From positions 990,045-1,054,044 of the forward strand of contig CBDAOY010000007.1 in assembly GCA_965198225.1 (NCBI GenBank): a DNA stretch of 64,000 nt. The letters are read 5' to 3'. Position numbers and translations under genes: made by a program. This document shows positions 3,403 through 47,864 of this stretch, piece by piece. This stretch comes from Terriglobia bacterium (GTDB lineage Bacteria; Acidobacteriota; Terriglobia; 20CM-2-55-15). Below the pieces are notes generated by a model that ran no database searches, had not been told where the DNA came from, and was given only the letters and a program-made list of their open reading frames with translations. The first letter of the stretch is position 1. Every line of letters begins with the position of its first letter.

Positions 3403-6400
3403 TCAGTCTTCGCCGCCTTTCCCGGACTTCTTGGACTTATCTGACTTTTCGGATTTGTCCGATTTGCCGGACTTGCCCGACTCCTCAGACTTGTTCGATT
3501 TTCCGGACTTGTCGGACTTACCCGATTTGTCGTCATCGTCGCCTTCGATGTCAGCCTGGATGCGGATCTCTCCCGAGTCGTTGCCGATCGTTAGGTTGAC
3601 CTCGACTGGATTCGAGATACTGTCCAGATTCACGGCCTCCGCCTCGACTCGAAAGTCGAAGGCGTCCGGACCCAGCTCGCGAATCCTCAGCTCCAGCTCG
3701 ATCCCGGCGACCTCGCCTTCAAACTCAAAGATGTCCGCACCACCCTTACGGCGGAACTCCAGCGAACCTGCCGGCAGCGTCAGTTCGAAGACGCCGATGT
3801 TCAGGACAACATCTTCCTGTGACGGGTCGATACCGTCGGAAGCGACGCCCAGCGTGAAAGCTTCCCGGAGGTCGAACTCGCCGTCCGCGCCCGTTTCAAT
3901 CTCAGCGACGGCGGCGAAATCGGCAAATATCTCTGGCTGCGTGTCGCGGATGGTGATCTCCACAGTGTCGTCGACGCAGTCGGAGCGAGAGTTGCAGGCC
4001 CGGAAGGCCGCCGAAACAATGGTATCCGCTCCCACCGACGGTGCGAGGAACGTTGCGCTGGCTCCCGACGTCTCGAAGACGCCGTCGCTGTCTGTGTCCC
4101 ATTCAAGAGTCAGGAACGACACATCGCCCCCTTCCGCGTGGGTAACAGTCCCGTTGAGCGCAATCGACTCTCCTTCGTCGACCTCGTACGGCCCCCCGGC
4201 ATCCGCCGTGATACCGGCGAGATCCTCGTCGCCGAACGTGTCCCCGGGAGCTACTGCTGCTATTTCGTTGCCGTCGGAGTCAACCACCCGAAGTGCAACG
4301 TTGCCCAGATTCTCGACCAGGAACTGTCCCAGCGGGGACTCGGTGACCTTGCCGATCCCGCCCGTCGGGATCGACACGAAGGTGTCAGCGCCGAAGCCGA
4401 CCTCGACTGGCCCACGGAGGACCTCTAAGGTCAGGGACCCGCACAGGAACTTCACGGCATCGTTCTGGTCCAGGTCCACTCCCTGGCCGCACGCCACGAT
4501 GTGCGCCTTTTCGGTCCCGCCCCTGGCGTTGGCGAACAACCCGTTTCCGAACGCGTCCCAAACCGTCACGTGCTGGTCCGCCCGGATCATTATGAAACCG
4601 GAACTAATCCCGTCGCTGAAATCGTCAGAAAAGGTCTGATCGGTGTCCACCTGGTCGATGATCCCGTCGCCGTCCCGGTCTTGCGGACCGATGGCCGTGA
4701 CGCGGCCCCCCACCCCAACGATGGCGCCGACCACCTTGTTCGAAACCGTCCCGTTTTCGTCCACCACCTCGATGACCTGAACGACGGACTCACTGGCCAC
4801 GTAGACCTTCGTCCCGTCCGGACTCACTGTGACGTCACTACCGAACGCCCCCGGCACTGCCGGGACGACGACGTCCTTGACGTTCGTGTCGATAACCGCG
4901 ACTCCAAACGGTCCCATCGCAACGTAGACGAGATGGCCATGGCCGTCTACGGGCTGCGGTGTCACGGCCAGATCGGACGGTACACCTCCAACGCTGATGT
5001 CCTTGACCTTCATGCCGTACTCACTGGTGTTCCTGTCAGCGCCGATGACGGAGACGGTCTTCGCGTTGGCAAAGGTATTCCCCACATAGGCCCACTGACC
5101 GTCGGGCGTCACGAGTACAGGACTGGGCTGGGTACCGACAACGATGTCGAGGGCCTCGGAGGTCTCGGTGTCGATCCGCGTGACCTTTTTCTGTTCGCGC
5201 CGGGTGGCGTAGACCTGAGTGCCGTCCGGGTGCACCGCCACACCGTCGAAGTTTTCCGCTGCTTTACCGGAATGTAAGACGGTCAGACCATGGGTCTCAG
5301 TGTCCATCACGTAGATGTCCGACCTGTTGCCACCCTGGTTGTCATTTTTGTCCTCGTGGACCACGACGAAGAGCTTCGTTCCGTCGGGGCTCACGACCAG
5401 TGCTTCGGGACCTGGTCCAACGACGTCCTCAACGGGGATAGGGACCTTGTGCACCTGTTTGGTGGCCGTGTCGAAGACCACAACGTTTTGGAGGTTGTTA
5501 AGGGAGTCCCGCTCGAGCCCATAGACTTCTGCCCCGTCTGGACGGACTGCGACGGCACCTGGCGCGCGATCAGTCAGGCCCGGCACAAGAGCTCCCGGCA
5601 CCGTTTCGGTGAGCAGGCAGTCATTGGCGGTGTCGATGATGCGGCCGTCGCCGGTATAGGCAAGCGGCCCGCCACCGCCGGTGCACGAAAGGGTGATCTT
5701 CGCGACGAACGCGTCGTTTCCGATTCCAGCGTTTGGCTGCAGCGTATTCCCCTCCTGCGGGAAGTTGGCGGATCCCGTTGTGCCGGCGACATAGACCTCA
5801 CCGAACGGGTTGACCGCGATACCGGAGCCCCTGTCGGCTCCGCTTCCTCCAAGGTAGGTGGAATACACGAGGTCTGTCCCGGAAAGGTTGAACTTGCTGA
5901 TGAAGGCATCGCAGAGCGTGCCATCGTGCAAGTGGGCTACGGGGTCCTCGGGTAGAGGGTCGACGAGTGGGAAACCGGTCATCGGGGCAGTCGTCGAGCA
6001 GCCCTGCCCGGTCACGTAAACGCCCGAGGGGTCTGCCGCGACAGCGTATCCGTAGTCGTCTCCCACGCCGCCCAGGAACGTGGAATACGTGAGATCCGCA
6101 CAGTTGTTGTACTGGACCTGTCCGATCGGGCAGCTCACGAAGGAGGAGTTGCCCGCGGACAGTGCCGCCACAAACACATCGTAAGTCCCACCGCCATGTG
6201 TCTCCTGGTAGGTGCCCGGAAAGCCGAAATTGCTGGAGGAGACAGGGAAGTCCATCGAAATGGTCTCTCCTGTGACCACGATTCCCCACGGACTGAAGGA
6301 TATGCCTCGCGCCAGGTCCCAGCTGGAGCCGCCCAGGTAGGTGGCATACTCCAGACGAGCTATCCCCTGGTTGTTTGTGCCCAGTTCGGCCAGAAAGGCG

Positions 6401-8004
6401 TCGCATCCGCCGCCGTACTGGGTTGAGAAAGGAGTCGCCGAAGGAGGGGTGGGAAAGTCGTCTGAGCAGGTCTGTCCCGTCACGAAGGGGCCGGTCGACT
6501 CGGAGCCGACGATGATTCCCAGACCATCCTCGCTGGACTGGCCCCCAAGGTAGACACCGTAGTCGAAGTCGTGACAGTCGCTGTATTGGATTCCGTTGAT
6601 GTTGCAGGAACTCTCGTTGAAGGGAGTGCTGATATCGAGCTTGACCACGAAGGCGTCCCGGGCAAGCAGCGGATTGTTCACGTCGATGGAGAGCGTGGTC
6701 AGTGCGGATTGGGCGTTGTCGGCAGGGAAGTCCGCCGAGTGGGTTGTGCCGGTAACAAAGACGGAGTTCACGGTGTTCGGTAAGAGCGAGGGTGTCACAG
6801 CCACGCCGAGGGCGAGGTCGTCGCGGCTGCCGCCCAGATAGGTGGAGTACTGGAGTTGCCCGCTGAAGGGCGCGAGCGCAAGCACAAAGCCGTCCAGATC
6901 GGTGCCTCCTAACTTGTTGGGGTCCAATCCCCGGTCAAAGGCGTCGGGAGTCGTGGGGAAGTCCGATGACCTGGTGTGACCTACTACGTACACCGTGCCC
7001 GAGGGCGCCGGGACGATTCCCCTCGCGGACTCGTCGCCTGTCCCTCCGAAGTAGACGGAATAGGCCAGGGCGCCGGAGCTGTCTATCTTGACCACGAAGC
7101 CGTCGTCTCCTGCCGCCGGCGGCACCTGGGTTGCCGGACCGGGCAGTGTGGCGCCCGAGGTGGTCGACCCTGCTACATAAACGTTCCCCTCGCCGTCGAT
7201 GGCGATGCCACGGGCTGAATCCTCGCCCATCCCGCCAAGGTAGCTGGAGTAGCCTAGCTCCAGCACCGGATCGATGACCAGAGTTTTGCTGTCATCGTAT
7301 GCGGCCAGTTGAAAACCGACGACCTGGGATTCTGGATTCAAGAGGTATCCGCCGGGGACCGTTTGCCGCCGACCGTCGATTTCCTGGTAGATGACGGGTT
7401 TTCGAAGTCGAACCTCACCGGTGGAGGTGTCGAGGACGAGGTCCCCGTTCGTGTCGATTTCGACTCTATCCGGACCCTCCAAGGAAACCTTGATGGAGTC
7501 GGGATCAGCCCCGGGCGCAACTATGAAGTCGTGCTCCCAGCGCCGTTGGTTGCCATAGTGAACGAGGTCGATCCCTGGATAGACATTCTGGTATCGGACC
7601 CTTGCGTAGGTTGGGAGGTTGGTGCGCCACTTCTCGGGGTCGCTTCCGATGAAGTAACTGCTCTTGCCTGGCAGCTCCTGGAGGCCGATGATAGCCGATC
7701 CGGAGTCGGCGCCGACGAGCCGCATCCGCACCGCACTTGCCGGGGTTTTGCCGGCGTCGCGCTCACGGAGCAGAAGAACCGCTTCTTCGGAAGTCAGGAA
7801 GAGCGTATAGCCGCTGCCTCGGGAAATGAACCGGACCTCTTCGTCCGCCTGGCCCTGGTTGGGCTCGAAGGCCATCGGTAATTGCACGAAGGTCGCCGGC
7901 AGGCTCTGGTCGACCTTTCCTTCACCCTGGCTGTTGGCCCCCCCGGGGGAAACCACGATTCCGAACAAAAGGCAGACCAAGAAGGCTTTCATCGCCGATC
8001 GCAT
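3403..8004 (-). CDS. Giant secreted beta-propeller repeat protein (SBBP-type and YVTN-type repeats) with a K/S/D-rich C-terminal tail
   Basis: 1533-aa ORF with signal peptide MRSAMKAFLVCLLFGIVVSPGGANSQ. It has many 'YSTYLGGSxxDxxxGIAVxxxGxVYVxGxTxSxDFP' repeats (SBBP beta-propeller signature) and 'VSPDGTKVYVA'-type repeats. The tail is DDDDKSGKSDKSGKSNKSEESGKSGKSDKSEKSDKSKKSGKGGED. Confidence 0.85.
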   Translation of the reverse strand: MRSAMKAFLVCLLFGIVVSPGGANSQGEGKVDQSLPATFVQLPMAFEPNQGQADEEVRFISRGSGYTLFLTSEEAVLLLRERDAGKTPASAVRMRLVGADSGSAIIGLQELPGKSSYFIGSDPEKWRTNLPTYARVRYQNVYPGIDLVHYGNQRRWEHDFIVAPGADPDSIKVSLEGPDRVEIDTNGDLVLDTSTGEVRLRKPVIYQEIDGRRQTVPGGYLLNPESQVVGFQLAAYDDSKTLVIDPVLELGYSSYLGGMGEDSARGIAIDGEGNVYVAGSTTSGATLPGPATQVPPAAGDDGFVVKIDSSGALAYSVYFGGTGDESARGIVPAPSGTVYVVGHTRSSDFPTTPDAFDRGLDPNKLGGTDLDGFVLALAPFSGQLQYSTYLGGSRDDLALGVAVTPSLLPNTVNSVFVTGTTHSADFPADNAQSALTTLSIDVNNPLLARDAFVVKLDISTPFNESSCNINGIQYSDCHDFDYGVYLGGQSSEDGLGIIVGSESTGPFVTGQTCSDDFPTPPSATPFSTQYGGGCDAFLAELGTNNQGIARLEYATYLGGSSWDLARGISFSPWGIVVTGETISMDFPVSSSNFGFPGTYQETHGGGTYDVFVAALSAGNSSFVSCPIGQVQYNNCADLTYSTFLGGVGDDYGYAVAADPSGVYVTGQGCSTTAPMTGFPLVDPLPEDPVAHLHDGTLCDAFISKFNLSGTDLVYSTYLGGSGADRGSGIAVNPFGEVYVAGTTGSANFPQEGNTLQPNAGIGNDAFVAKITLSCTGGGGPLAYTGDGRIIDTANDCLLTETVPGALVPGLTDRAPGAVAVRPDGAEVYGLERDSLNNLQNVVVFDTATKQVHKVPIPVEDVVGPGPEALVVSPDGTKLFVVVHEDKNDNQGGNRSDIYVMDTETHGLTVLHSGKAAENFDGVAVHPDGTQVYATRREQKKVTRIDTETSEALDIVVGTQPSPVLVTPDGQWAYVGNTFANAKTVSVIGADRNTSEYGMKVKDISVGGVPSDLAVTPQPVDGHGHLVYVAMGPFGVAVIDTNVKDVVVPAVPGAFGSDVTVSPDGTKVYVASESVVQVIEVVDENGTVSNKVVGAIVGVGGRVTAIGPQDRDGDGIIDQVDTDQTFSDDFSDGISSGFIMIRADQHVTVWDAFGNGLFANARGGTEKAHIVACGQGVDLDQNDAVKFLCGSLTLEVLRGPVEVGFGADTFVSIPTGGIGKVTESPLGQFLVENLGNVALRVVDSDGNEIAAVAPGDTFGDEDLAGITADAGGPYEVDEGESIALNGTVTHAEGGDVSFLTLEWDTDSDGVFETSGASATFLAPSVGADTIVSAAFRACNSRSDCVDDTVEITIRDTQPEIFADFAAVAEIETGADGEFDLREAFTLGVASDGIDPSQEDVVLNIGVFELTLPAGSLEFRRKGGADIFEFEGEVAGIELELRIRELGPDAFDFRVEAEAVNLDSISNPVEVNLTIGNDSGEIRIQADIEGDDDDKSGKSDKSGKSNKSEESGKSGKSDKSEKSDKSKKSGKGGED

Positions 8005-8081
8005 CTCTTCCCTCCGTTGCCCGGCAGATGTATGAACGCCGGGCTGATTCCATTTCTACGGGAGTGTCGGCGTTGACGGAA

Positions 8082-8102
8082 TCGCATGAACATGCGGTTT
8101 TC
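8082..8102. promoter_or_regulatory. 21-bp motif TCGCATGAACATGCGGTTTTC (core palindrome CGCATG-NN-CATGCG), copy 1
   Basis: Lies about 80 bp upstream of the giant protein start (8004). A near-identical copy sits at 8281..8301. Confidence 0.3.
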
Positions 8103-8280
8103 TCATCTAAGCCGATGGCCGAGACCGCGTATTGAGAACTCGGCAGGGGGACGGTTGCTGGAGCGGCGGTGAATTCTGATGGATGGAAGATGTAAGCCGA
8201 CGTCTCTGATCTATGGACTCAGGCGGCCGAGACCGCCCGTGTATCGCACGGCGCTACGAGCATTTGCAAGCGGGGGAGAC

Positions 8281-8301
8281 TCGCATGAATATGCGGTTTT
8301 C
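8281..8301. promoter_or_regulatory. 21-bp motif TCGCATGAATATGCGGTTTTC, copy 2
   Basis: Matches 8082..8102 at 20 of 21 positions, 199 bp away. GGCCGAGACCGC also occurs next to both copies. Confidence 0.3.
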
Positions 8302-8422
8302 GCTTCGTCCGTAAGAGATCAAATCTGAGAGCCTGGGAAGTGCTGTGATAGCCGCCAGCAAATCAGTAGTCAGTTGCTTTTGGCGCATCCCTAACTGACT
8401 ACCGACTCCTGACTACTAACCA

Positions 8423-9748
8423 TCAATTCTTCCAACTGTCGGCCCACAAAGGCAGGCGCAGCCTGGCCGCACAGCCTTGCCCCTCGCCCCGGTTCTCCAG
8501 TGTCAGGGTACCCTGATGCGCTTCTGCGATCTGTCGGCTCAAAACCAGCCCGATTCCCGAGCCGCCCTTCTTGGTGGTGAAGAAGGGGACGAACAGGTTG
8601 GAGGTGTTCGGCAGGCCCGGGCCTTCGTCTTCAACCCAGATGTGCAGGTGGCCGCCGGAGCGACTCCACCCCGTTCGCACATCACCTCCAGTTTCGAGAG
8701 ACGCGTCGACGGCATTCCGGACCAGGTTGATGAGGAGCTGCTCGATCTGTCCGCCGTCGGCTTCGATCGTGATCGGCGGACCTGGTATCAGGTTGACCGG
8801 CAGGCGCGTCTCCATTCCGACGACTCGACGTACCAGGGTGTCCACATCGACCTCTTCGGGTTTCGGTTGAGGTAGGCGTGCGAGCTTGGAATAGGACTCG
8901 ACGAACTGGATCAGGGAAGCGGATCGGGACGAGATCACCGAGAGACCGTGTTGGACGTCTTCCTCCCAGTCCGCCGGCCGCTGATCGCGCCCGAGCAGGC
9001 TCATGAGACTGCTCGCGATCGAGCTGATCGGTGTCAGGGAGTTGTTCAACTCGTGACCCAGAACGCGCACGATCCTCTGCCAGGTTCGCCTTTCCTCCTC
9101 GCGGAGCGTCCGGCTGAGATCGGACAGAACCAGCAGCTGGTGGGGAAGTCCACCCTGGCGAAAATTTGTCCGGCGGATCTCCCACCGGCCCCCGCCGCCC
9201 GGGAAACCGAACTCGACCAGCCGCGGCGTTTTGCCCTCCAGGCAATGTGCCAGACCCAGTTCGGCGGCGTTCGCGCCGAGCAGGCGTTCCCATGGTCTGT
9301 TCAGGAGGCGTTCGCCGGCACGGTTGACCAGCCGTAGCTTCTGGCCCTCGTCGAAGGAGAGTATCGCGACGTCGATCTCCTCCATGATCTTCTGCAAGAG
9401 CGCGGTTGCCTCGAGCGCGTCCATTCGCTGCCACCGGAGCGTGTCGGCGAGCGCGTTGATTTCTCGCGTCACATCTCCCAGCGCGTCGTCAATTCGGGCA
9501 CTGCTGCCACGGATCGAGTAGTCCCCCTCACGGAGCCCCGCGAGCAGGTTGGAAAGGGTCTGAAGGGGGAAGACCACTTTCTGCCTGGCGCCGAACGCCG
9601 CCCCTAACCAGACCACGAGGATCAACACCGACAGCGTCCACTGGACTTTCGCCGTGTAATCACTGCTCCAGAGGATAATCAGGGAGATGAGCGAGCCGGG
9701 GACCCCGGCGGTGAAGGCGATCCAGAATATGCGCTCTTCGTGTCGCAT
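8423..9748 (-). CDS. Sensor histidine kinase (two TM segments, HAMP, PAS-like, HisKA, HATPase)
   Basis: H-box VLGHELNNSLTPISS. N/G boxes LINLVRNAVDA, VEDEGPGLP, GGSGIGLVLSRQIAEAHQG. N-terminal TM helices. Confidence 0.88.
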   Translation of the reverse strand: MRHEERIFWIAFTAGVPGSLISLIILWSSDYTAKVQWTLSVLILVVWLGAAFGARQKVVFPLQTLSNLLAGLREGDYSIRGSSARIDDALGDVTREINALADTLRWQRMDALEATALLQKIMEEIDVAILSFDEGQKLRLVNRAGERLLNRPWERLLGANAAELGLAHCLEGKTPRLVEFGFPGGGGRWEIRRTNFRQGGLPHQLLVLSDLSRTLREEERRTWQRIVRVLGHELNNSLTPISSIASSLMSLLGRDQRPADWEEDVQHGLSVISSRSASLIQFVESYSKLARLPQPKPEEVDVDTLVRRVVGMETRLPVNLIPGPPITIEADGGQIEQLLINLVRNAVDASLETGGDVRTGWSRSGGHLHIWVEDEGPGLPNTSNLFVPFFTTKKGGSGIGLVLSRQIAEAHQGTLTLENRGEGQGCAARLRLPLWADSWKN

Positions 9749-10246
9749 GGCTCGTTTTAGTTACAAGTAGGCCGTTGTCCGTTATTGTGGCAAATGACTC
9801 GTAGCCGTAAGCTGATCGCTGATGGCCAACTGACCGCCGGCCGGCTGCAGGCCATAGCTATCACCGGCCGCATCGCCGCCACGTGCCACAACAACGGCCT
9901 ACGGATAACGACCTACATCACTCCCACCAACTCATCCTGGCCGGGGACCCGGCGGTGAAGGCAGTCCAGAATATGTAATCGTCGTGTCGCATGGTCCGTT
10001 TCGTTACAAGTAGGCCGTTATCCGTAGGCCGTTATTGTGGTAAATGACTCGTGGCCGGAAGCTGATCGCTGATGGCCGACTTACCCGCCGGCCGGCGGCA
10101 GTCTGGCCACGAGCTATCATCGACCGCTTAGCTGGGACGTGCCACAACAACGGCCTACGGATAACGGCCTACGGCCGCGTCAGCGGCCCAACGGCCTACG
10201 GATAACGACTCACGGCCGCGCCAGCGGCCCAACGGCCTACGCTCAA
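9698..10246. repeat. Two tandem ~245-bp units, each containing a ~150-165-bp palindromic element with ~33-bp GTAGGCCGTTATCCGTAGGCCGTT-type arms, plus two extra 41-bp partial units
   Basis: Unit 1 starts at 9698 and unit 2 at 9943 (GGGGACCC..). The arms are at 9767..9792/9884..9916 and 10010..10042/10140..10172. Unit 1 includes the kinase start codon. Unit 2 carries a diverged decoy copy (MRHDDYIFWTAFTAGSP.. versus MRHEERIFWIAFTAGVPG..). Confidence 0.75.
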
Positions 10247-11617
10247 TCACAACTCGTATCTTTGTATCCGCCTGTACAACGCGCTCCGGCTCAACCCCAG
10301 GGCCTTCGCCGCCTGGCTGACGTTGTTGTCGTACCGCGCGAGAGCCTTGCGGATCAGGAACGCTTCGACCTCCTCCAGGCTCATGTCTTCGACCCGGCCC
10401 GCGGTTTCACGGCCATCGTGCAGACCCAGATCGGCCGAGGTGATCATCTCTCCCTGCGCCATCAGGACGGCCCGCTCGATGGCATGGTCCAGTTCACGAA
10501 CGTTACCCGGCCACGGGTGGTCGACGAGGATCGGCAGTGCTGACGGATCGATACCACGAACCGGCTTGCGATACCGTTTTGCGTAGGTGTTCAAGAAGTG
10601 GATCGCCAGTGGCCGTATATCGTCGCGACGGTCTTTGAGGGAGGGCAGGCGAATCTCGATCGTATTCAGTCGAAACAGCAGGTCCGGGCGGAATCGTCCT
10701 TCGGCAGCTTCCTTGACCAGGTTCGCGTTCGTGGCCGACAGGACACGCACGTTCACGTTGCGTGTCTTGGACGAGCCGACGCGTTCCAACTCCCCGGATT
10801 CCAGGACGCGCAGCAGTTTGGCTTGCTGGGTCAGCGGAACGTTGGCGATCTCGTCGAGAAAGAGCGTTCCGCCGTTGGCCAGCTCAAAGCGCCCGACGCG
10901 GTCGGTCTTGGCATCGGTAAAAGCGCCTTTCACGTGTCCGAACAACTCGCTTTCGAAAACACCTTCCGCAAGTCCGCCGACGTTCACCGTGACCATGGTG
11001 TTCGACGCGCGTTCCGACAGCGCGTGGATGGTGCGTGCGACCACTTCCTTGCCGGTTCCGTGTTCACCTGTGATCAGCACGTTGGCGTCGGAGGGCGCAA
11101 TCCGTGTCATCAACTGGAGCACGGGTTGCATCGTAGCGGACTCGGCGATGAAGCTCGGCCGTCCCTCCGCGCGCAGCAATCGGTTCTCCGCTTCGAGTCG
11201 CTGCTCGTTCCGCAACGTTCGGCAGAGTTCGATCTGCGTGCGCACGATCGCCAGGAGGCGGGGGTTTTCCCACGGCTTCTGGATGAAATCCCGGGCCCCA
11301 CGACGCATTGCCTCGACGGCCAGCTCGATCGTACCCCAGGCCGTCATCACGACCACGGGCAGAGTGCTGTCGATGGTGCTGATTTTGGTCAGCAGGTCGA
11401 GTCCCTCCTGCCCGGAGGTGGTGTCCCTGGCGTAATTGAGATCCACGATCGCGACGTCGAAATCGCGCGCTTCGATCGCACTGAGGATACCCGACGGCGT
11501 CGTCGCGGCCTCGGTTCGATACCCTTCAGCCTTCAACAGAAGCCGCAGGGCCTCGAGGACGTCGGACTGATCATCCGCAATCAAGACCTGGGCCGGGGAA
11601 GCGCTTCGGTTTCTCAT
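10247..11617 (-). CDS. Sigma-54-dependent two-component response regulator (REC + AAA+ + Fis-type HTH)
   Basis: REC domain VLIADDQSDV..DVAIVDLNY. Walker A GEHGTGKE. ESELFGHVKGAFTDA (GAFTGA-type loop). C-terminal HTH AAKALGLSRSALYRRIQRY. Confidence 0.92.
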   Translation of the reverse strand: MRNRSASPAQVLIADDQSDVLEALRLLLKAEGYRTEAATTPSGILSAIEARDFDVAIVDLNYARDTTSGQEGLDLLTKISTIDSTLPVVVMTAWGTIELAVEAMRRGARDFIQKPWENPRLLAIVRTQIELCRTLRNEQRLEAENRLLRAEGRPSFIAESATMQPVLQLMTRIAPSDANVLITGEHGTGKEVVARTIHALSERASNTMVTVNVGGLAEGVFESELFGHVKGAFTDAKTDRVGRFELANGGTLFLDEIANVPLTQQAKLLRVLESGELERVGSSKTRNVNVRVLSATNANLVKEAAEGRFRPDLLFRLNTIEIRLPSLKDRRDDIRPLAIHFLNTYAKRYRKPVRGIDPSALPILVDHPWPGNVRELDHAIERAVLMAQGEMITSADLGLHDGRETAGRVEDMSLEEVEAFLIRKALARYDNNVSQAAKALGLSRSALYRRIQRYEL

Positions 11618-11763
11618 GGTGTCAATCAGGTGATCCTTAAGGTTTCCCGTTTCGGTCGTCGCACGGTGGCTTCCTTTTGTTTAGATTGTATCTCATTGAT
11701 AAGAATGTCCTTAAACTTTCCGGGAGGGAGGGTGCGTCGAGTGGGGTGTTCAGCGACGACAAC

Positions 11764-11785
11764 GGGTGTTCGAAAACGAACACCC
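11764..11785. promoter_or_regulatory. Perfect palindrome GGGTGTTCG-AAAA-CGAACACCC
   Basis: 9-bp arms, lying about 150-170 bp upstream of the response regulator start. It is paired with a second site 35 bp away. Confidence 0.4.
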
Positions 11786-11798
11786 GATCTCGCGTTCT

Positions 11799-11818
11799 CG
11801 TGTTCGAACCCGAACACG
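11799..11818. promoter_or_regulatory. Perfect palindrome CGTGTTCG-AACC-CGAACACG
   Basis: It has the same GTGTTCG-N4-CGAACAC core as 11764..11785. Confidence 0.4.
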
Positions 11819-11873
11819 CTTTGTCTTTAAGGTTGAGAGCCCAATGCAGCAAGATCGGACCGGGCCAGCAGCC

Positions 11874-12536
11874 CTAATCCCGGACCCACCCGTCGAAGAG
11901 CTGGATGATCCGATCGCCGCAGGCCGCGTTGGACTCGGAGTGAGTGACCTGTATGATAGTCGCCCCTTCGTCGTTCAGTTTCTTGAACAGCTCCATGATT
12001 TCGCGGCCCTGGCTGGAGTGCAGGTTGCCAGTTGGCTCGTCGGCGAGGATAACCTTCGGATCGGCGATCACGGCGCGCGCAACGGCGACGAGTTGCTGTT
12101 GACCGCCTGAGAGCTGGTTCGGGAAGAGGTCCTTCTTGCCGACCATCTGAAAACGGTCGAGCGCGTCGGCGACGATGGCCTGGCGTTCGCTACGTTTGAT
12201 GTTCCGGTAGGAGAGGGGAATGTCCAGGTTCTCGGCCACCGTCAGGCTGTCGAGCAGATGGTACTGCTGGAACACGAAGCCGATGTATTGCTTGTTCAGC
12301 TCGACTCGCTGCTTGGGTTTCATGCGGTGGACGGCGTTTTCCAGGAAGAAGAACTCTCCCTGCCAGGAACTGTCGAGCATGCCGAGTATCGCCAGGATCG
12401 TGGACTTGCCGGCCCCGGACGGTCCCATGACCGTCACGAACTCCCCTTGCTTGATGTCCAGATTGATCCGGCGCAGGACGTATGTTCGCCCGGCGCGCGT
12501 GTCGTAGAACTTTTCGAGATTTCGCAGTTGAATCAT
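11874..12536 (-). CDS. ABC transporter ATP-binding protein (MacB/LolD-type ATPase, no fused permease)
   Basis: Walker A GPSGAGKST, signature LSGGQQQLVAVARA, Walker B ILADEPTGNL. 220 aa, ATPase domain only. Confidence 0.9.
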   Translation of the reverse strand: MIQLRNLEKFYDTRAGRTYVLRRINLDIKQGEFVTVMGPSGAGKSTILAILGMLDSSWQGEFFFLENAVHRMKPKQRVELNKQYIGFVFQQYHLLDSLTVAENLDIPLSYRNIKRSERQAIVADALDRFQMVGKKDLFPNQLSGGQQQLVAVARAVIADPKVILADEPTGNLHSSQGREIMELFKKLNDEGATIIQVTHSESNAACGDRIIQLFDGWVRD

Positions 12537-12549
12537 TCAGGGGGCGAAC

Positions 12550-13251
12550 CTACTCGCCCGCACCGATGCTTTCTTCGACGATGGCGCCGTCGAAGAGGTG
12601 GATTTCCCGTTCCGCGTAGCGCGCATACCGCGGGTCGTGCGTCACCATGCAGATCGTCGCGCCTTCCCGGTGGAGGCCGCGCATCAGATCCATGACCGCT
12701 TCACCGTTCTTGGAATCGAGGTTTCCAGTCGGCTCATCCGCCAGCAGGATCGAGGGTGTTCCACCCAAGGCGCGAGCCACCGCGACCCGCTGCTGCTGAC
12801 CACCCGACAACTGCGACGGGTAGTGCTTCATCCGGTGGGCCATCTCGACCTTGTCGAGCGCTTCCTGGACGGCCTTCTTCCGTTCGCTCGAGGGCATCCC
12901 GCGGTAGGTCAGAGGCAGTTCCACGTTTTCATAAACGGTGAGGTCGCCGATGAGGTTGAACGCCTGGAAGATGAAACCGACCTCCCGGTTTCGGATCCGC
13001 GCTCTCTCCGACAGAGACAGGTCAGCGACGGCTTTTCCGCTGAGCCAGTATTCGCCTTCTGTGGGCGAATCCAACAGACCCAGGATCGAAAGCAGCGTCG
13101 ATTTACCACAACCCGACGGGCCGGAAATCGACACGTACTCGCCCTTGTTGATGTTCAGGTGAATCCCCGCCAGCGCGTGAGTCTCCACTTCGTCGGTGTA
13201 GAAGATCTTTTTCACATCCTCCATCTGAATTACCGCTTGCTGCTCTGTCAT
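12550..13251 (-). CDS. ABC transporter ATP-binding protein (MacB/LolD-type ATPase, no fused permease)
   Basis: Walker A GPSGCGKST, signature LSGGQQQRVAVARAL, Walker B LLADEPTGNLD. 233 aa. Confidence 0.9.
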   Translation of the reverse strand: MTEQQAVIQMEDVKKIFYTDEVETHALAGIHLNINKGEYVSISGPSGCGKSTLLSILGLLDSPTEGEYWLSGKAVADLSLSERARIRNREVGFIFQAFNLIGDLTVYENVELPLTYRGMPSSERKKAVQEALDKVEMAHRMKHYPSQLSGGQQQRVAVARALGGTPSILLADEPTGNLDSKNGEAVMDLMRGLHREGATICMVTHDPRYARYAEREIHLFDGAIVEESIGAGE

Positions 13252-13309
13252 TCTTCTCTCCTGCGCTCAATGATGATTTCGATTCTTGTGACGCAACCCT
13301 TTTCTCTGA

Positions 13310-14560
13310 TCAATTCAGTTGGACGCGATCGAACGCATCCCAGGCAGACATGTCGGAGAGGATCACTTCGTCTCCAACGTTGAGCCCCTGGACGATCTCC
13401 ATCGTGCTTACCGACGTCCGGCCCAGCCGGACCTGTGTCCGGACGGCTTCACCGTCAATGCCGAGCCTGAAGATCCCAACCAGGCTGTTTGCCTGTCCGT
13501 ACGCCGGCCGTCCGACGTAGAGGACATCTTCCAGGCGTTCGATCTCGACCGTGCCATCGACACTCAAGTCCGGGCGGGCTCCGCGGGGCAACTCCCCGTC
13601 GAGCCTGACGTCCACTTTGACCGTTCCGTTCAGCACCGCCGGGTCGATCCGGATCACCGTGCCGGGGATGACCCCGTTCCGGGTGTCGATGGAGGCAAAC
13701 TGCCCGACCTGGATGTCCTTGGCCTGAGTCTCTGCGATGTTCAGTTCGGCTTTGAGCTTTCCGGGTTCGGCCACTCGCGCGATCCGGCTGCCCGGCGAGA
13801 GGCGGTCACCGACCTCGATCGGAACCTGTTGCAGCACGCCGTGGATTCCGGCACGTACCCTCAGTTTTTCCAGCTCAGTCAGCCGGAGCTCGTATAGAGC
13901 ATTCAACTGTTCGATGCGGGCTTCCTGCGCTGCCAGCTGAGCTTCGGCGGCCTGCGAAGCGATTTCCAACCGCTGCCCCTCCAGCTTGAGCCGTTCGCTG
14001 AGCTGCTCGGCGTCGACGCGCGACTTGTTCAAGTTCAGTTCCGCGATCAAGCCCTCTTTTGCCAGCTCGGCATCGGCTTCATATTGCAGCCTGGCGCTGT
14101 TGGCCTGGCCTTCGATTGCAGCGGCCCCGGCCCGCTGGGTCAGCAGGTTGCTCTGAAGCTGGACCCGCAGGTTGGCCAGTTCGGCCTCAGCGACGCGGAT
14201 CTGGAGCGCGACGTCCAGCGTGGTCTGTTCCAGGTCGGGGTTGCTCAGCTCAACCACAACCGTCGCCGGGTCGACCGTGACGCCCGGCAGGACGACGATT
14301 CGTTCCACGAGTCCTTCCGTCGTGGCGGCGATCCACCGAATTTCCTCGGGCACGAGTTTGCCGAGTCCCCGAACCTGGCGGAGCATCTCACCTCGTTCCA
14401 CGGTGTCGATGTACACGGTCGCGCGATCGACCCGTGGCGCCGCCGGCTTCAATCGGGACAGACCCAGGGTGATGCCGGAACCGACAAGGATCACCAGCGT
14501 TCCATAGACGATGCGCTTGATCCGCTTCTTTCTGGCTTGAGATGGGCGGGGTTTATCCAT
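13310..14560 (-). CDS. HlyD/MacA-family periplasmic adaptor (membrane fusion protein)
   Basis: N-terminal TM anchor, long coiled-coil hairpin (LQIRVAEAELANLRVQLQ..AQLAAQEARIEQL), and barrel-sandwich/beta-barrel C-terminus. A GGAGG Shine-Dalgarno precedes the ATG. Confidence 0.85.
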   Translation of the reverse strand: MDKPRPSQARKKRIKRIVYGTLVILVGSGITLGLSRLKPAAPRVDRATVYIDTVERGEMLRQVRGLGKLVPEEIRWIAATTEGLVERIVVLPGVTVDPATVVVELSNPDLEQTTLDVALQIRVAEAELANLRVQLQSNLLTQRAGAAAIEGQANSARLQYEADAELAKEGLIAELNLNKSRVDAEQLSERLKLEGQRLEIASQAAEAQLAAQEARIEQLNALYELRLTELEKLRVRAGIHGVLQQVPIEVGDRLSPGSRIARVAEPGKLKAELNIAETQAKDIQVGQFASIDTRNGVIPGTVIRIDPAVLNGTVKVDVRLDGELPRGARPDLSVDGTVEIERLEDVLYVGRPAYGQANSLVGIFRLGIDGEAVRTQVRLGRTSVSTMEIVQGLNVGDEVILSDMSAWDAFDRVQLN

Positions 14561-14723
14561 AAGTCCTCCGATGGTGGATATGCGAATCGCGTTCCAGTCT
14601 GCTGTTTCTGTTAAGTCTATCTGTTTTCATCACTTCCACTTCGTCGAATCCACTAAACCAGGACGCAAGGTGTTCGCTTCTGGGATTGCATTCAGCGAAA
14701 GCGAACGTGTTCACAACCTCGTC

Positions 14724-16436
14724 CTACTGCTGTCCAGCCACTCCCCGGGTTTGCACACTCGCCAGCGAGGGGCGTAACTGCTGCTCGATCTGGATATTGT
14801 TCCGTTCTAGCGTCCGACCCACGGCGCGGTCATAGGACACCACGGCCTTGACGTAATCGACGAGGGACCGGATTTCGGTCGTTTGCGCCTGGGTCAGGTT
14901 CCGCTGCTCCTGCAGCACGAAACGGATCGCCGATGCACCCAATCGGAATTTTCGCTGTTCGGCATCCAGGCGCCGCTCGGCCAGTTCCCTGGCGATCTGC
15001 GCCGCATCGATCCGGGCACGGTTCATCTCGATCTGGTTGTAGGCGTCCCGGACCTCGGTGGCGATCGCCTGCGCGGTTGCGGCCATACGCGATTCGTTGA
15101 GCCGCTTTTGGGTGGTCAACCGCGAATGGTTGGCCTTAGCCGACTTGTTGCTCAACGGAATCTGGAGCGAGAAGCCTACGGAGTAGCCAGTGAAGTCGAA
15201 GCCAAAGATGTCTTCGAACGCACCGCCGATTCCGCCGGGGACCTGTATCACCGAACCCGTGGGTTCTCCGAACACGTTGCCGCGAAGATTCCTCGTTCCG
15301 CCCAATCCGCTCTGAGTGTAGGATGCGCTGACATCCAACTGCGGCAGCAGCTGATTCTTAGCGAACGCGAGGTCGATATCGTTGTTCTGGACCTGCAGGT
15401 CGATCTGTCGCATTTCGGGCCGATTCAGCAGCGCCAGCCGAATCGCCTCCTCGACCGGCAGGATCTGGTCCTCGCGGCGTCCGCGGACATCTTCGATCGG
15501 ATTCAGCGACATCAGGACCAGAGCGGGATCGGGAACCCGGCTGACCATCTTCTTGATGCTGTCCTCGATCCGGGTTTTGGAGTAGTTCGCCAGAACCAGC
15601 CCCTCGCGACGGCTGGCCACCTCCGATTCCGCCTGAACGACTTCGATCGGTGCAAGGGTACCGATCTCGACCTGCTTGCGGTTGTCGTCGAGCGTACGCT
15701 GGGCCAGTTGCAGGGACTCTTGCTGGACCTTGATATCCTCCAGTGAGAAGACGAGGTCCCAGTAGAGGTTGTGAGCCTGGGTTACGAGGTCCATGACCTG
15801 CATTTCAAATTGAATCTCGGAAATATTCAGATTGTTCCGGGCGATCCGAATCTGGTTGGTGTTGTTGAGCCGGCCGAAGTTCCTCAACAGCGGCTGCGAG
15901 AACGAGTACTGCAGGCTGCCGAAGTAGGAGGGGTTTACCGAACTGAACAGGCTGTTGGTCGAACTTCGGTTCATCTGGAACCGCACCTGGTACGACGTTC
16001 CATGTTCGAGGAAGTGGTTGTACGTCACGGCGTAGTTTCCGCCCAGCCTCGAATTGGATGCCGCACCGTCCAGCGCGGATCCTGACGGCGTCGTGTTGCG
16101 GTTTATGTTGCCCGACAGCGTGAGCGTCGGATCAAACCGCCCGTAAAGCGTGTTGATCAGGTATTCCGTGGTCAACGGCGAAAAACGGTTCACACCGATG
16201 TCCATGTTGTTTTCCAGCATGAGCCGGATGACATCGTTCACCGAGAGAGGCAGGCCGCCATCCTGCTGGACCATTGCAACCAGCGATGCCGGTGGCGCGT
16301 CGGTTGTTTCCAGGGCAGCCAGACCGATTTGCGGCGGCCGGTACCGATCCAGGAAACCGGTCACCCAGTTCTGTGCGGAGGCGGTGGAACCCAGCAGCAG
16401 TACCCAGAGGGCGACCAAAGTCACATATTTTTTCAT
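14724..16436 (-). CDS. TolC-family outer membrane efflux protein
   Basis: Signal peptide MKKYVTLVALWVLLLGSTASAQ, reached from the ATG at 16436 that is preceded by AGGAG. It has two OEP-type repeat halves. The track ORF starts 15 codons earlier, at 16481. Confidence 0.85.
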   Translation of the reverse strand: MKKYVTLVALWVLLLGSTASAQNWVTGFLDRYRPPQIGLAALETTDAPPASLVAMVQQDGGLPLSVNDVIRLMLENNMDIGVNRFSPLTTEYLINTLYGRFDPTLTLSGNINRNTTPSGSALDGAASNSRLGGNYAVTYNHFLEHGTSYQVRFQMNRSSTNSLFSSVNPSYFGSLQYSFSQPLLRNFGRLNNTNQIRIARNNLNISEIQFEMQVMDLVTQAHNLYWDLVFSLEDIKVQQESLQLAQRTLDDNRKQVEIGTLAPIEVVQAESEVASRREGLVLANYSKTRIEDSIKKMVSRVPDPALVLMSLNPIEDVRGRREDQILPVEEAIRLALLNRPEMRQIDLQVQNNDIDLAFAKNQLLPQLDVSASYTQSGLGGTRNLRGNVFGEPTGSVIQVPGGIGGAFEDIFGFDFTGYSVGFSLQIPLSNKSAKANHSRLTTQKRLNESRMAATAQAIATEVRDAYNQIEMNRARIDAAQIARELAERRLDAEQRKFRLGASAIRFVLQEQRNLTQAQTTEIRSLVDYVKAVVSYDRAVGRTLERNNIQIEQQLRPSLASVQTRGVAGQQ

Positions 16437-16589
16437 TGAGATACTCCTAGGAACTCGTGCAATAAGGTGCGTCTTAATCAATCATCAAGCTCTTACGCCG
16501 CGGACGGGCGATCCGTTACGTCCGGAGGGCCTATTTAAAAGAAGTTAACAACATTCGCGACCGAATTCCACTGCCCCGGGGGTTTCTCC

Positions 16590-17387
16590 CTACAGGCCAC
16601 TGGACCGGCGCAGCCGGATCGCTCCGTTCACTGTCTTGAGGCGGAGATCCCGTCCGCCGTTTCCGATCGTCCCGTTCAGCCGTCGGCTTCCGAAGCGTCC
16701 CGACACGGTCATCGGGAAATCGCTGGAAATTCCGCCGTTCAGAGTTTCGGCCCGGACGTCTGCGTTGGTGTTGTCTGGGAGTTCAACCGTGATGCGACCG
16801 TTGACGGTTTCGAAAGTCAGGTCGTCCTGCCAGTCGCTCCGTCCCATCGAAACATCGATCGATCCGTTCACGGTCTTTGCCTGAACCAGCCCGGTGGCCG
16901 ATACCTCGACCTGGCCGTTTACGGTGTAGGCCTCGACGTCACCGTCGATCGAGTTGGCCTCGACACCGCCGTTCACGTTGCGTCCGATGAAACGTACACC
17001 CGCCGGAACCCGGACCGTGAAGTCCACTTCCACATCGTTGTCGTGCGTGTTCATGCGGCCGTCTGTGCCGGGTCTGCAATCGTTGGCTCGATCAGAGTTC
17101 CGACTCGGGTATACCGCGCAGATCGTGACGCCGTCGTCGTGCTCTATCGTCTCGATCTGGACAGAGTCGACGTCGCTACGGCGCGAGCTCTTGTTTGCGA
17201 CGACCTGCACCTGATTGCCCGATGCGGATGACGCTTCGACCTTACCGTTGATACCTTTGATTTCGATCGCTTTGCCGGCTGCGATCGTTCCTTCCCATTC
17301 GAAGCGTTCCTGTGCGAACGCGGATGGAATGCCGATGGTGGTGGCCATTCCCAGGACCAGGGCGGTTCGAGTCAGTGTCTGGTACAT
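16590..17387 (-). CDS. DUF4097-type beta-strand repeat protein (secreted)
   Basis: Repeated (V/L)NGxIxV motifs (VNGSIDV, VNGRITV, VNGAIRL). Signal peptide MYQTLTRTALVLGMATTIGIPSAFAQ from the ATG at 17387, preceded by AAGGAGAG. It is a paralog of 37490..38305. Confidence 0.7.
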   Translation of the reverse strand: MYQTLTRTALVLGMATTIGIPSAFAQERFEWEGTIAAGKAIEIKGINGKVEASSASGNQVQVVANKSSRRSDVDSVQIETIEHDDGVTICAVYPSRNSDRANDCRPGTDGRMNTHDNDVEVDFTVRVPAGVRFIGRNVNGGVEANSIDGDVEAYTVNGQVEVSATGLVQAKTVNGSIDVSMGRSDWQDDLTFETVNGRITVELPDNTNADVRAETLNGGISSDFPMTVSGRFGSRRLNGTIGNGGRDLRLKTVNGAIRLRRSSGL

Positions 17388-17705
17388 TTCTCTCTCCTTC
17401 ACGATATTGAGTGCACTTACGGGCAGGGTTACCCGAATGTTCAATACCGTCCACCAGTCCATCGGTTACGCCCGGTTCGGGATTCGCGAGTGCGATCGGT
17501 CGCAAATCGTCGTCCGGTCGCCTGCATGCTCGCATGCGCATCTCCCGTTCCATCGTTCCGATTCACGTAATTCGTTGAAAGCAATACGGCAATGGTTCAC
17601 CCGCGGGTGATGCCCCGCTGTCCCCGTGCCCGTCTGTGGGACGGCCGGTCCGAAAACGAACAGTGGAGTCGAGCAGGGCTGAATTCAGTCTGACGGACGC
17701 GGCGT

Positions 17706-37489: not shown

Positions 37490-38305
37490 CTAATTTCCCC
37501 TCCGAATATAAATATTTCCGTTGAACGTGGTGAGCTGGAACTCCGGTCCGCCGCCGTTGATGTTGCCCGTGATCGTCTTGTCGATTCGGATTCGGCTACG
37601 GTCGCCGCGCGATTCGTCGATGACTTCCTGCGTTCCGCCGGACTGCCGCTCGATCTCGAAGTCGCTGTAGATCTCTCCGTTGTCGGTCTTCATCTTGATC
37701 GTGGCGTTGACGTTGCCGGGGAGCGTGACGTCGATTTCACCGTTGAGGGTACTGAAAGACATCGGTGTGTCGGGGGTGACGCTCGTGAACGTGACCACGA
37801 CCTCGCCGTTCAAAGCGTTCGCGATGGCCGATCCGCCGATGTTCGTCAGCCGTACTGCGCCGTTGGTGTTGTCGACCTCGATCTCGCCGCGAACATCGGA
37901 CACCACGATATCGCCTCCGCTGACCGTGTCCAGCTCCAACGAGGTGTCGAAGGGAACCCGGAGCCTCACGTTCGTGACACGGGACATCGCGCTGCTTTCG
38001 ATCGTCATCACGTTGTTCCGTTCTTCTACTTCCAGCCCGGTCGACAGGTTCGGAATTCGTCGCAGGCCGCGTGCCCTGGGAGGTGCCTCTCGCCGCGATT
38101 CAGAATCCTGCCCGGCGGCCTCGATCACGACGTCGGAACCGTCGTAGCCCTCGACGGTGATCCCTCCCATGAGGATATCGGCGACGACGCGTCCCGGACG
38201 TGATGGGTCGGAAAACGGAAGCGTGATCTGTTCCTGCGCCGCTACGGGCAGCGCCGTGGCGAGGAGCAACGGGATGATCACAGTTGCGAGATTGGCTTTG
38301 TTCAT
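37490..38305 (-). CDS. DUF4097-type beta-strand repeat protein (secreted)
   Basis: Signal peptide MNKANLATVIIPLLLATALPVAAQ. Repeats TNGAVRL, LNGEVVV, LNGEIDV, DNGEIYS, FNGNIYI. Confidence 0.7.
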   Translation of the reverse strand: MNKANLATVIIPLLLATALPVAAQEQITLPFSDPSRPGRVVADILMGGITVEGYDGSDVVIEAAGQDSESRREAPPRARGLRRIPNLSTGLEVEERNNVMTIESSAMSRVTNVRLRVPFDTSLELDTVSGGDIVVSDVRGEIEVDNTNGAVRLTNIGGSAIANALNGEVVVTFTSVTPDTPMSFSTLNGEIDVTLPGNVNATIKMKTDNGEIYSDFEIERQSGGTQEVIDESRGDRSRIRIDKTITGNINGGGPEFQLTTFNGNIYIRRGN

Positions 38306-45077: not shown

Positions 45078-45256
45078 GGGGTGTCTCCTGATTCAATGCG
45101 AAGGGCAAGTTCTCCGAACGAATCATTTGATCGACTTTTCTTCAGCCGATATTGTAAGCGAAGTCACCGAGATGGGAAGGGTAGCGTGGATGTCAAAGAC
45201 GAGAGAGGTGAGGGGCGCCGGCAGACGATGACGCGACCTGCCGGCGTCTGCGCCTT

Positions 45257-45915
45257 ATCCCGGGCGTCGACGCATCTCTTCCCGGGTGATGAATCCATCA
45301 TCGTCCGCGTCGAGGCGGTCGAAGGCCTCAGTCGGTCGGGTCCACTCGTCACGAGAAACCTTGCCGTCGCCGTCTTCATCCATCTGGAGCATCGCGGCTC
45401 CCCGGCCACGTCCGCCTCTGCCCGGGCGGGAGTTCTGCATCTCTTCGAGAGTGATGAAGCCGTCGCCATCGGCGTCCATGGTCTCGAACATCTGCGCGGG
45501 ACCCGGAAACTCCTGCTGCGACACGCGTCCATCGCCATCGCTGTCGAGCCCCTGGAAACGGGCTTGAGGGTCTGCGCCTCTTCCGCCTCTATCCCGGGCG
45601 TCGCCATCTCTTCCCGAATCCATCATCGTCCGCGTCGAGGCGGTCGAAGGCCTCAGTCGGTCGGGTCCACTCGTCACGAGAAACCTTGCCGTCGCCGTCT
45701 TCATCCATCTGGAGCATCGCGGCTCCCCGGCCACGTCCGCCTCTGCCCGGGCGGGAGTTCTGCATCTCTTCGAGAGTGATGAAGCCGTCGCCATCGGCGT
45801 CCATGGTCTCGAACATCTGCGCGGGACCCGGAAACTCCTGCTGCGACACGCGTCCATCGCCATCGCTGTCGAGCCCCTGGAAACGGGCTTGAGGGTCTGC
45901 GCCTCTTCCGCCTCT
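45257..45915. repeat. Tandem direct duplication (334 bp + 325 bp) inside the EF-hand coding region
   Basis: 45257..45590 and 45591..45915 are identical by eye except for a roughly 9-10-nt indel cluster at the start of each unit (..GACGCATCTCTTCCCGGGTGATGAATCC versus ..GCCATCTCTTCCCGAATCC). Confidence 0.85.
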
Positions 45916-47558: not shown

Positions 47559-47864
47559 ATGCCTCGAAACTACATGACATATCCGTCCGGTCTGGTCCTG
47601 CAGGCAATCGCTTCGGGGCATCGGTATGGTTTCGATGTGATGGATGTGACGGGATTGCCGAGTGGTACGGTTTACCCGGCACTTCGGAAGCTGGAACGAG
47701 AGGGCTATGTCCGTTCCAGGTGGGAAGGCGAAGATGTGGCCCGCCAGGCAGGGCGTCCACCGCGGCGTTACTACGAGGTTAGCGGCCCTGGCTCGGCGGC
47801 CTTGACCCAGCTGCTGAAACGGTTTCCAGGACTGGCCCGGGCCCTTGCCGCGGAGGTCTTGTGA
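47559..47864 (+). CDS. PadR-family transcriptional regulator
   Basis: LVLQAIASGHRYGFDVMDVTGLPSGTVYPALRKLEREGYVRSRWE..GRPPRRYYEVS. Confidence 0.88.
   Translation: MPRNYMTYPSGLVLQAIASGHRYGFDVMDVTGLPSGTVYPALRKLEREGYVRSRWEGEDVARQAGRPPRRYYEVSGPGSAALTQLLKRFPGLARALAAEVL

Follow-up and report, generated by a model that had tools for sequence, protein, structure and literature searches.

The locus described here raises the question of which membrane protein is served by two ATP-binding cassette (ABC) ATPases that are encoded together with an outer-membrane channel, a periplasmic adaptor and a two-component system, and beside which no permease gene is found. It occupies positions 8423–17462, on the minus strand, of a 64-kb stretch (64,000 nucleotides, referred to below as the window) of contig CBDAOY010000007.1 from a Terriglobia bacterium. 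The reading that we favor, and that we consider reasonably though not strongly likely, is that these genes form the core, lacking its permease, of a MacAB-TolC-like system that works with ADOP permeases, and that the core is completed here by ADOPs encoded elsewhere. The system itself, a tripartite system of the type VII ABC class, is widespread in Acidobacteriota and Verrucomicrobiota.

The locus consists of seven consecutive genes in the order DUF4097-TolC-adaptor-A1-A2-NtrC-histidine kinase (HK), all read from the minus strand. The first encodes a DUF4097 ("toastrack") protein (16590–17462; Pfam PF13349), whose open reading frame (ORF) comprises 290 aa, or 265 aa from the publicly annotated start at ~17387. 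It is followed by a TolC-family outer-membrane factor (14724–16481; Pfam OEP, NCBIfam TolC family; 570 aa from the annotated ATG at 16436), a MacA-like periplasmic adaptor of the HlyD family (13310–14560; 416 aa; Pfam HlyD_D23 and HlyD_3), and two paralogous MacB-type ABC nucleotide-binding subunits, ATPase A1 (12550–13251; 233 aa) and ATPase A2 (11874–12536; 220 aa), each assigned by PF00005, NCBIfam and PDB matches. The last two genes encode an NtrC-type sigma-54-dependent response regulator (10247–11617), in which REC, AAA+ and HTH_8 domains were found by Pfam and NCBIfam, and a sensor histidine kinase (8423–9748) with two transmembrane (TM) helices, followed by a PAS-like domain and HATPase_c. 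The initial annotation, which had described a TolC channel, an adaptor, two ATPase-only subunits of 233 and 220 aa and a sigma-54 two-component system, is thus confirmed in its gene content. Its intergenic gaps of 13–58 bp apply to adaptor-A1 (58 bp) and A1-A2 (13 bp), whereas the gaps for TolC-adaptor, A2-ntrC and ntrC-HK are 163, 256 and 498 bp, respectively. The absence of an FtsX/MacB-type permease from the operon, which had also been proposed, was borne out by both an ORF domain search and tblastn. No FtsX/MacB_PCD ORF lies within 8423–17462, so that the operon does not encode a complete type VII (MacB-type) transporter, and a tblastn search of the 64-kb window with 125 ADOP proteins returned nothing ADOP-like except at 47945–48457.

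The identity of the components is supported by several lines of comparison. For the adaptor, the AlphaFold model (mean predicted local distance difference test score, pLDDT, 75.6) shows a TM helix at residues 7–34, an alpha-hairpin at residues 108–231 formed by two helices of ~60 residues, and beta domains. Its best Foldseek match is MacA in MacAB-TolC (9qgy_G, E = 1e-18), and 5nik_D, 3fpp and EmrA were also retrieved (E = 1e-18 to 1e-16), with template-modeling scores of only 0.35–0.49 and with a low-confidence C-terminal part of the model. Together, the Pfam domains and the structural matches identify the protein as a MacA-like member of the HlyD/membrane-fusion protein family. The adaptor is unusually conserved: at least 8000 database proteins of 416–418 aa are homologous to it, and the 120 best listed are all at least 59% identical. 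The TolC-family protein matches PF02321 over two stretches with 137.8 bits, as found for TolC/outer-membrane factors, scores 74.5 bits against TIGR01844, which is under the subfamily cut-off of 225, and has a hydrophobic N-terminus (MKKYVTLVALWVLLLGSTASA). The DUF4097 gene occupies the same position upstream of TolC in L006–L010 and lies inside the cluster, in the order A2-DUF4097-ADOP, in Verrucomicrobiota loci (L043, L057, L059, L060, and L064). This co-conservation in relatives indicates that DUF4097 belongs to the system.

For the two ATPases, the PF00005 scores are 116.6 and 106 bits. Their best NCBIfam matches are DarD, LolD, MacB, FtsE and YbbA, and their best PDB matches are 5XU1, MJ0796, MacB, LolD and YbbA; the ABC_tran motifs and the closest relatives (MacB, LolD, FtsE, and YbbA) thus place both among the type VII (MacB-type) nucleotide-binding subunits. 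All motifs are canonical in A1. Those of A2 are canonical save for the D-loop, in which GNLH replaces GNLD, a conserved change at the dimer interface. Neither protein has a degenerate catalytic site.

To which permeases related modules are linked was assessed from their gene neighborhoods. A scan of one genome per GTDB species returned at least 594 loci with an adaptor relative, of which the best 80, all from Acidobacteriota and Verrucomicrobiota, were taken with 10-kb flanks; 12 adaptor homologues had been aligned beforehand. The ORFs were classified by phmmer with the window proteins, and with the two duplicated permeases that lie beside a 71%-identical adaptor in L005, as queries. At least one ADOP-type gene was found in the same-strand chain as the adaptor in 48 of the 80 loci. 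An ADOP was located further downstream, non-contiguously, in three loci, no ADOP was present within at least 5 kb in 20, and the flank was too short to decide in nine. The ADOP family is named, according to its TIGRFAMs description, for lacking adjacent ATPase genes, and the initial annotation had treated such permeases as characteristically encoded without an ATPase beside them. This does not describe the present relatives, because 48 of the 71 decidable loci carry ADOPs in cis with the module.

The linked permeases are of the ADOP type. They carry MacB_PCD and FtsX domains, the complete ones are of the duplicated ADOP type with ~750–925 aa, and the shorter matches are fragments or contig-end truncations. 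When ten of them were sampled, all ten matched TIGR03434 over its full length with 722–1030 bits, compared to the cut-off of 622.3. The number of ADOPs per cluster ranges from one to five; full-length ADOPs are present at 47 loci, of which 36 carry between two and five of them and 30 have ADOPs in excess of ATPases. The ADOP genes are interleaved with those of the core, as in the orders adaptor-ADOP-A1-ADOP-A2-NtrC-HK (L013), adaptor-A1-ADOP-A2-ADOP-NtrC-HK (L020) and, in Verrucomicrobiota, NtrC-HK-adaptor-A1-ADOP-A2-DUF4097-ADOP-ADOP (L043). The order of the ADOP subfamilies is conserved as well, with PB before A1 and PA after it (e.g., PB-A1-PA-A2). These neighborhoods point to ADOPs, and not conventional 4-TM FtsX proteins, as the natural permease partners of A1, A2 and the adaptor in the relatives. 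Since these operons typically contain more ADOPs than ATPases, sharing of the ATPase and the adaptor would already be built into the system.

A second, independent anchor, A2, yielded three further loci, L091, L092 and L093. In the metagenome locus L091, the HK and NtrC genes are divergent from a TolC-adaptor-A1-A2 series, and an 801-aa ADOP, which scores 706.8 bits against TIGR03434 (cut-off 622.3), starts 8 bp past A2. The six shared proteins are orthologs of the window proteins, with identities of 83% for A1, 85% for A2, 73% for NtrC, 63% for HK, 55% for the adaptor and 50% for TolC. L092 and L093 retain TolC-adaptor-A1-A2 in the chromosomal neighborhood of the window (BsuPI and dCMP deaminase), with A1 and A2 84–87% identical and with neither an ADOP nor a two-component system.

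The complete permease-less series DUF4097-TolC-adaptor-A1-A2-NtrC-HK is kept in two other species, represented by L009, from a closed 6.41-Mb genome, and L010, whose adaptors are 84% and 75% identical to that of the window, respectively. In comparisons of the window with L009 and L010, the ratio of nonsynonymous to synonymous substitution rates (dN/dS) was 0.02–0.18 for all seven genes, at a near-saturated dS of at least 0.9. The most constrained of the seven are the two ATPase genes: A1 is 88–91% identical to its counterparts in L010 and L009 with a dN/dS of 0.05–0.07, and A2 is 90–94% identical with a dN/dS of 0.02–0.06. The dN/dS of TolC was 0.08–0.16. These results indicate that the permease-less core is under strong purifying selection in this clade. 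An independent permease-less form, PadR-adaptor-A1, occurs in ~10 species of Vicinamibacterales, in which a PadR-ADOP pair is often divergent from it or a few kb away.

An ADOP gene of the elsewhere-encoded type is present in the window, as a remnant. The plus-strand PadR regulator gene at 47559–47864 (TIGR03433) is followed by an ORF at 47861–48475, on the same strand, that the initial annotation had presented as an ADOP permease gene. This ORF of 204 aa covers only positions 1–111 of the 803 positions of TIGR03434 with 111 bits, far from the 622.3 bits of the cut-off, and in the tblastn comparison with ADOPs only residues ~1–190 were matched, at 47945–48457. It is therefore what remains, at the 5′ end, of an ADOP gene coupled to PadR. 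Within the 64-kb window, tblastn did not retrieve the distal part of this gene. A tyrosine integrase gene follows on the plus strand (48554–49792; NCBIfam integrase domain, 158 bits), and it probably marks an inserted element that truncated the ADOP gene. The GC content climbs to 0.64–0.68 at 56–62 kb, so that the integrated element may extend past the window.

A protein database search with the remnant returned only short fragments of at most 353 aa, in addition to a 65%-identical piece of 208 aa that led to a syntenic relative, L090. There (7699–10991), PadR is followed by an entire ADOP split into pieces of 208, 94 and 632 aa, with neither an integrase nor an ATPase; the 632-aa piece covers ADOP positions 177–803 with 703.6 bits. 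L090 also shares the genes upstream in the window, which encode a radical-SAM/methyltransferase fusion and an EF-hand protein. In the window, the former is an 817-aa fusion of a radical SAM/SPASM protein with an ArsM-like SAM methyltransferase (42624–45077, minus strand) and adjoins the EF-hand protein (45255–46295). The remnant PadR-ADOP pair at 47.6–48.5 kb, taken together with its syntenic counterpart, shows that this lineage carries orphan-type PadR-ADOP genes, and the pair exemplifies the elsewhere-encoded gene type.

The expression of the core may be under sigma-54 control, as had been proposed. A candidate sigma-54 (−24/−12) promoter, TGGAACGCGATTCGCA, with GG-N10-GC spacing lies at 14581–14596 on the minus strand; measured from its 5′ end, it precedes the adaptor ATG by 36 nt, and a GGAGGA ribosome-binding site follows. 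In a positional analysis of 80 loci (L009–L089, with one locus left out for too little upstream sequence), 34 GG-N10-GC sites scoring at least 8 were located 20–60 nt upstream of the adaptor start. The remaining bins of 20 nt held 0–6 sites, typically 0–3, and on the opposite strand the fullest bin held seven, with no comparable peak. A consensus search of the whole window gave 11 matches compared to 8.5 expected, which is not significant; it is the positional analysis across loci, and not the consensus search alone, that is informative. The NtrC-type control proposed for the locus is therefore backed by a positionally conserved candidate motif upstream of the adaptor gene. Scans of the operon for sigma-70 promoters and terminators gave counts no higher than those of shuffled sequence.

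The two-component system itself is conserved with the transporter genes. NtrC orthologs scored 630–980 bits, compared to 25–300 for unrelated paralogs, and HK orthologs scored ~490–980 bits, compared to below ~40 for unrelated kinases. By these scores, NtrC/HK orthologs lie beside adaptor/ATPase/ADOP clusters in 16 of the 80 loci, in both phyla, and also in L091. The two TM helices of the kinase are connected by a loop of only ~9 residues, GD(H/Y)TAKVQWTL, which is kept in orthologs of both phyla, and from which an intramembrane-sensing architecture is predicted. Upstream of ntrC, two perfect 18-bp palindromes, GTGTTCG-N4-CGAACAC, are found 34 bp apart at 11766–11783 and 11800–11817. No other perfect match is present in the window; the two palindromes occur only in same-species loci and may serve as a regulator-binding, operator or enhancer site. 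Scans of the regions upstream of ntrC and of the adaptor in 20 loci revealed no convincing shared operator.

The gene content, the orthology, the linkage to ADOPs in relatives, the purifying selection and the promoter motif being established, the argument for the proposed partner is as follows. Both nucleotide-binding subunits and an adaptor depend on a partner in the membrane, and because the complete partners linked to them in relatives are all ADOPs, the missing partner would be an ADOP. In this lineage the ADOP genes are not interleaved with the core, so that a core that is nevertheless conserved would have to be completed by ADOPs encoded elsewhere. The idea of a shared engine, as the initial annotation had conceived the locus, thus has real comparative support and is plausible, with candidate status for this genome.

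Several observations weigh against this interpretation. There is no intact ADOP within the 64-kb window, and gene neighborhood in other genomes is no proof that the proteins pair physically in this one. The sample, for which the adaptor served as anchor, consists of the 80 most similar loci with 10-kb flanks, in which raw ORFs were classified by phmmer, and some loci from long-read metagenome-assembled genomes (L053 and L057) are frameshifted. The candidate sigma-54 promoter is situated downstream of TolC and DUF4097, which may therefore be transcribed apart from adaptor-A1-A2, in which case TolC is perhaps not co-regulated with them. Finally, although the regulator has the REC, AAA+ and HTH_8 domains of an enhancer-binding protein and a candidate −24/−12 motif is found at the adaptor gene, its sigma-54 contact loop reads GAFTDA, and not the canonical GAFTGA, in 19 of 19 orthologs, whereas the unrelated NtrC-like genes of the same flanks have GAFTGA.

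From these comparisons we infer a physical pairing in trans, and likewise the number of partners, the stoichiometry, the mode of sensing and the substrate side of the following scheme. The intramembrane-sensing kinase would phosphorylate the NtrC-type activator, which would fire the sigma-54 promoter immediately upstream of the adaptor gene and thereby drive expression of adaptor-A1-A2. A single ADOP chain would receive two nucleotide-binding subunits at its two coupling helices, on the model of the 2:1 complex of YbbA and YbbP. ATP-driven mechanotransmission in the two periplasmic domains would then pass the substrate through the hexameric MacA-like adaptor into TolC.

An extended form of this scheme can be offered tentatively, as a possibility that we consider less probable than its negation: one sigma-54-controlled TolC/adaptor/A1/A2 core would serve many dispersed PadR-regulated ADOPs combinatorially, and the kinase would read the load on the transporter as BceS does. 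A hub with many partners would be tightly constrained, which would explain the unusual conservation of the adaptor and the ATPases, and a core shared in trans would explain why ADOPs have looked like orphans.

The presence of two ATPases raises the further question of whether A1 and A2 form an obligate heterodimer, as the initial annotation had supposed that a pseudo-heterodimeric duplicated permease needs. We regard this as doubtful. A1 and A2 are 45% identical, belong to distinct orthologous groups and differ at 24 positions that are fixed differently in the two, and the conserved Asp-to-His change in the A2 D-loop lies at the dimer interface. The two genes are adjacent in the window, L009, L010, L038, L040, L064, L091 and L092, and both proteins are extremely conserved (for A2, each of the 120 best-listed database proteins has an identity of 82% or more). 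However, an A1 ortholog is present in 66 of the 80 related loci and an A2 ortholog in only 19. A1 occurs without A2 in apparently complete ADOP-holding operons, namely L070 (adaptor-A1-ADOP-NtrC-HK), L049, L005, L017 and L019, and all of the PadR-adaptor-A1 modules of Vicinamibacterales are without A2. In addition, neither ATPase has a degenerate catalytic site, and the alternation A1-ADOP-A2-ADOP is just as compatible with two ATPase-permease pairs that have one adaptor in common. E. coli YbbP, a duplicated permease of solved structure, binds two identical YbbA subunits (PMC12646458), and Greene et al. noted that the nucleotide-binding domains are always separate where the double permease is fused (PMC5985334). 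The A1-only ADOP operons and the YbbP complex with its two identical YbbA subunits suggest that an A1/A2 heterodimer is possible and not required.

In L006, a 5x-coverage ENA contig from the same species, a 2.0-kb insert at 12299–14343, corresponding to window ~12263–12276, interrupts A2. The insert is built from a ~585-bp unit repeated in tandem ~3.5 times, its junctions overlap by 14 bp, and the 573-aa "protein" within it, which has no Pfam match, is merely translated repeat. Whether it represents a mobile element, another kind of repeat or an error of assembly, it provides no firm evidence that A2 is dispensable.

It is also conceivable, though in our judgment unlikely, that the locus is one half of a split operon, in which the core serves one specific ADOP, or a small fixed set, that has been relocated in the genome, without any hub. 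The single ADOP after A2 in L091 is what such a history would leave, and the operon-embedded ADOP subfamilies PA to PD differ from the PadR-coupled subfamilies PE to PG, which suggests dedicated pairings. Most clusters, however, contain two to five ADOPs for one or two ATPases. Moreover, PadR-coupled ADOPs lie directly beside adaptor-A1(-TolC) modules in Vicinamibacterales (L056, L065, L066, and L085), indicating that the module is not confined to one ADOP class.

It is highly improbable that A1 and A2 instead work with a conventional, single-domain (4-TM) FtsX/MacB-type permease whose gene lies elsewhere, or that their partner has a non-transport role as in FtsEX or LolCDE: both ATPases score well against the LolD and FtsE models, and a separate classical adaptor-ATPase-FtsX operon (FtsX of 411 aa) coexists with the module in L091, but the complete permeases in the orthologous chains are the duplicated ADOPs, and the presence of an adaptor and TolC favors efflux over a Lol- or FtsEX-type role. 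Least credible of all, and rejected on the dN/dS of 0.02–0.18, is the notion of a decaying remnant whose permease was deleted and whose leftover genes are non-functional: the sole ADOP in the window is truncated and A2 is interrupted by the 2-kb insert in the low-coverage L006, yet the ORFs are intact, the motifs are canonical, the constraint at near-saturated dS extends over three species, and the permease-less arrangement recurs in L092 and L093, which together make a relic very unlikely.

Among systems that have been characterized, E. coli MacAB-TolC (PDB 5NIK) resembles the proposed one in its TolC-family exit duct, its MacA-like adaptor, its MacB-type nucleotide-binding domains and, with respect to the relatives of the window locus, its MacB_PCD/FtsX permease. 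It differs in that the nucleotide-binding domains are here separate polypeptides, in the form of two paralogs, in the sigma-54/NtrC control, and in the absence of a permease gene from the locus; furthermore, MacB is a homodimer, whereas the permease of the relatives is a single chain with two MacB_PCD-FtsX halves. In E. coli YbbAP(-TesA) (PDB 9GE6–9GE8; PMC12646458), too, the MacB-type ATPase is a polypeptide of its own. Its permease is a duplicated, pseudosymmetric FtsX protein with two domains in the periplasm, and the stoichiometry is two ATPases to one permease (PMC12646458). YbbA is among the closest solved relatives of A1. Unlike the present system, YbbAP has no adaptor or TolC and has a periplasmic hydrolase as partner, YbbA and YbbP are encoded together one to one, and YbbP has 10 TM helices. 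With respect to the ADOP (TIGR03434) and PadR (TIGR03433) orphans, the core in the window is a mirror image, consisting of ATPases and an adaptor without a permease.

The DarBCD/DevBCA exporters also pair an adaptor with a separate ATPase, and DarD is the top NCBIfam match of the two ATPases (256 and 245 bits), while DarC scores 69 bits against the adaptor. A darobactin-type exporter was rejected, because these scores are far under the equivalog cut-offs of 375 and 450; in contrast to the darobactin exporter, the operon is linked to neither a precursor peptide nor a dedicated maturase, and the permease is not of the single-FtsX type. For the sharing of an energizing module, the nearest precedents are the group II energy-coupling factor (ECF) transporters (EcfAA'T) and MsiK/MsmK, in which one ATPase module is shared by separately encoded membrane components, as has been demonstrated biochemically. 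The likeness, which for the present system is a proposal, is that one energizing module, made up in ECF of two paralogous ATPases, serves dispersed membrane components. These systems are importers (type III/I ABC), with an unrelated fold and the opposite transport direction. BceAB-BceRS is similar as a type VII ABC system with a fused double permease, a separate ATPase, a co-conserved two-component system and a kinase with two TM helices and almost no extracellular loop, and is dissimilar in its OmpR-type regulator, its Gram-positive host, and its lack of an adaptor and TolC. BceS senses through its ABC transporter BceAB; that the present kinase senses through its transporter in the same manner is speculation by analogy.

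ADOP permeases are among the largest paralogous families of soil Acidobacteriota and occur in Verrucomicrobiota as well, and to our knowledge they have no assigned function or energy source. The present comparison provides these orphans with concrete, conserved candidate partners, namely A1, A2, the MacA-like adaptor, in some cases TolC, and a dedicated sigma-54 two-component system; ADOPs accompany these partners in cis at some loci and are absent from others. Should the core indeed be shared in trans, no earlier modular design with a shared engine is known to us among type VII ABC exporters, and the finding would bear on how abundant soil bacteria handle envelope-active compounds. In the open-access literature, ADOPs receive passing mentions in which the ATPase is not addressed, and we found no description of this module there. 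In Psychroflexus torquis, an ADOP cluster lies beside ATP-binding transporters (PMC3914696).

Some minor features of the window complete the description. The ntrC-HK spacer, 498 bp in the window compared to 94 bp in L009, contains a tandem duplication of ~250 bp (9704–10229), as revealed by repeat analysis. Each unit combines a hairpin resembling a miniature inverted-repeat transposable element, with 31-nt inverted repeats (GTAGGCCGTTATCCGTAGGCCGTTATTGTGG), with a duplicate of the initial ~50 nt of the kinase ORF. The gene that comes directly after the kinase, on the minus strand, encodes a 1533-aa DUF7948/SBBP beta-propeller repeat protein (3403–8004), which is also found in the same-species contigs L006 and L007 and not in L009. 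The remaining genes of the window encode peptidases, a complete Opp-type importer, an amino-acid permease and unrelated proteins. A second, divergent DUF4097 "toastrack" protein is encoded at 37490–38305 on the minus strand, beside a HEAT-repeat protein and in a position unrelated to the efflux operon.

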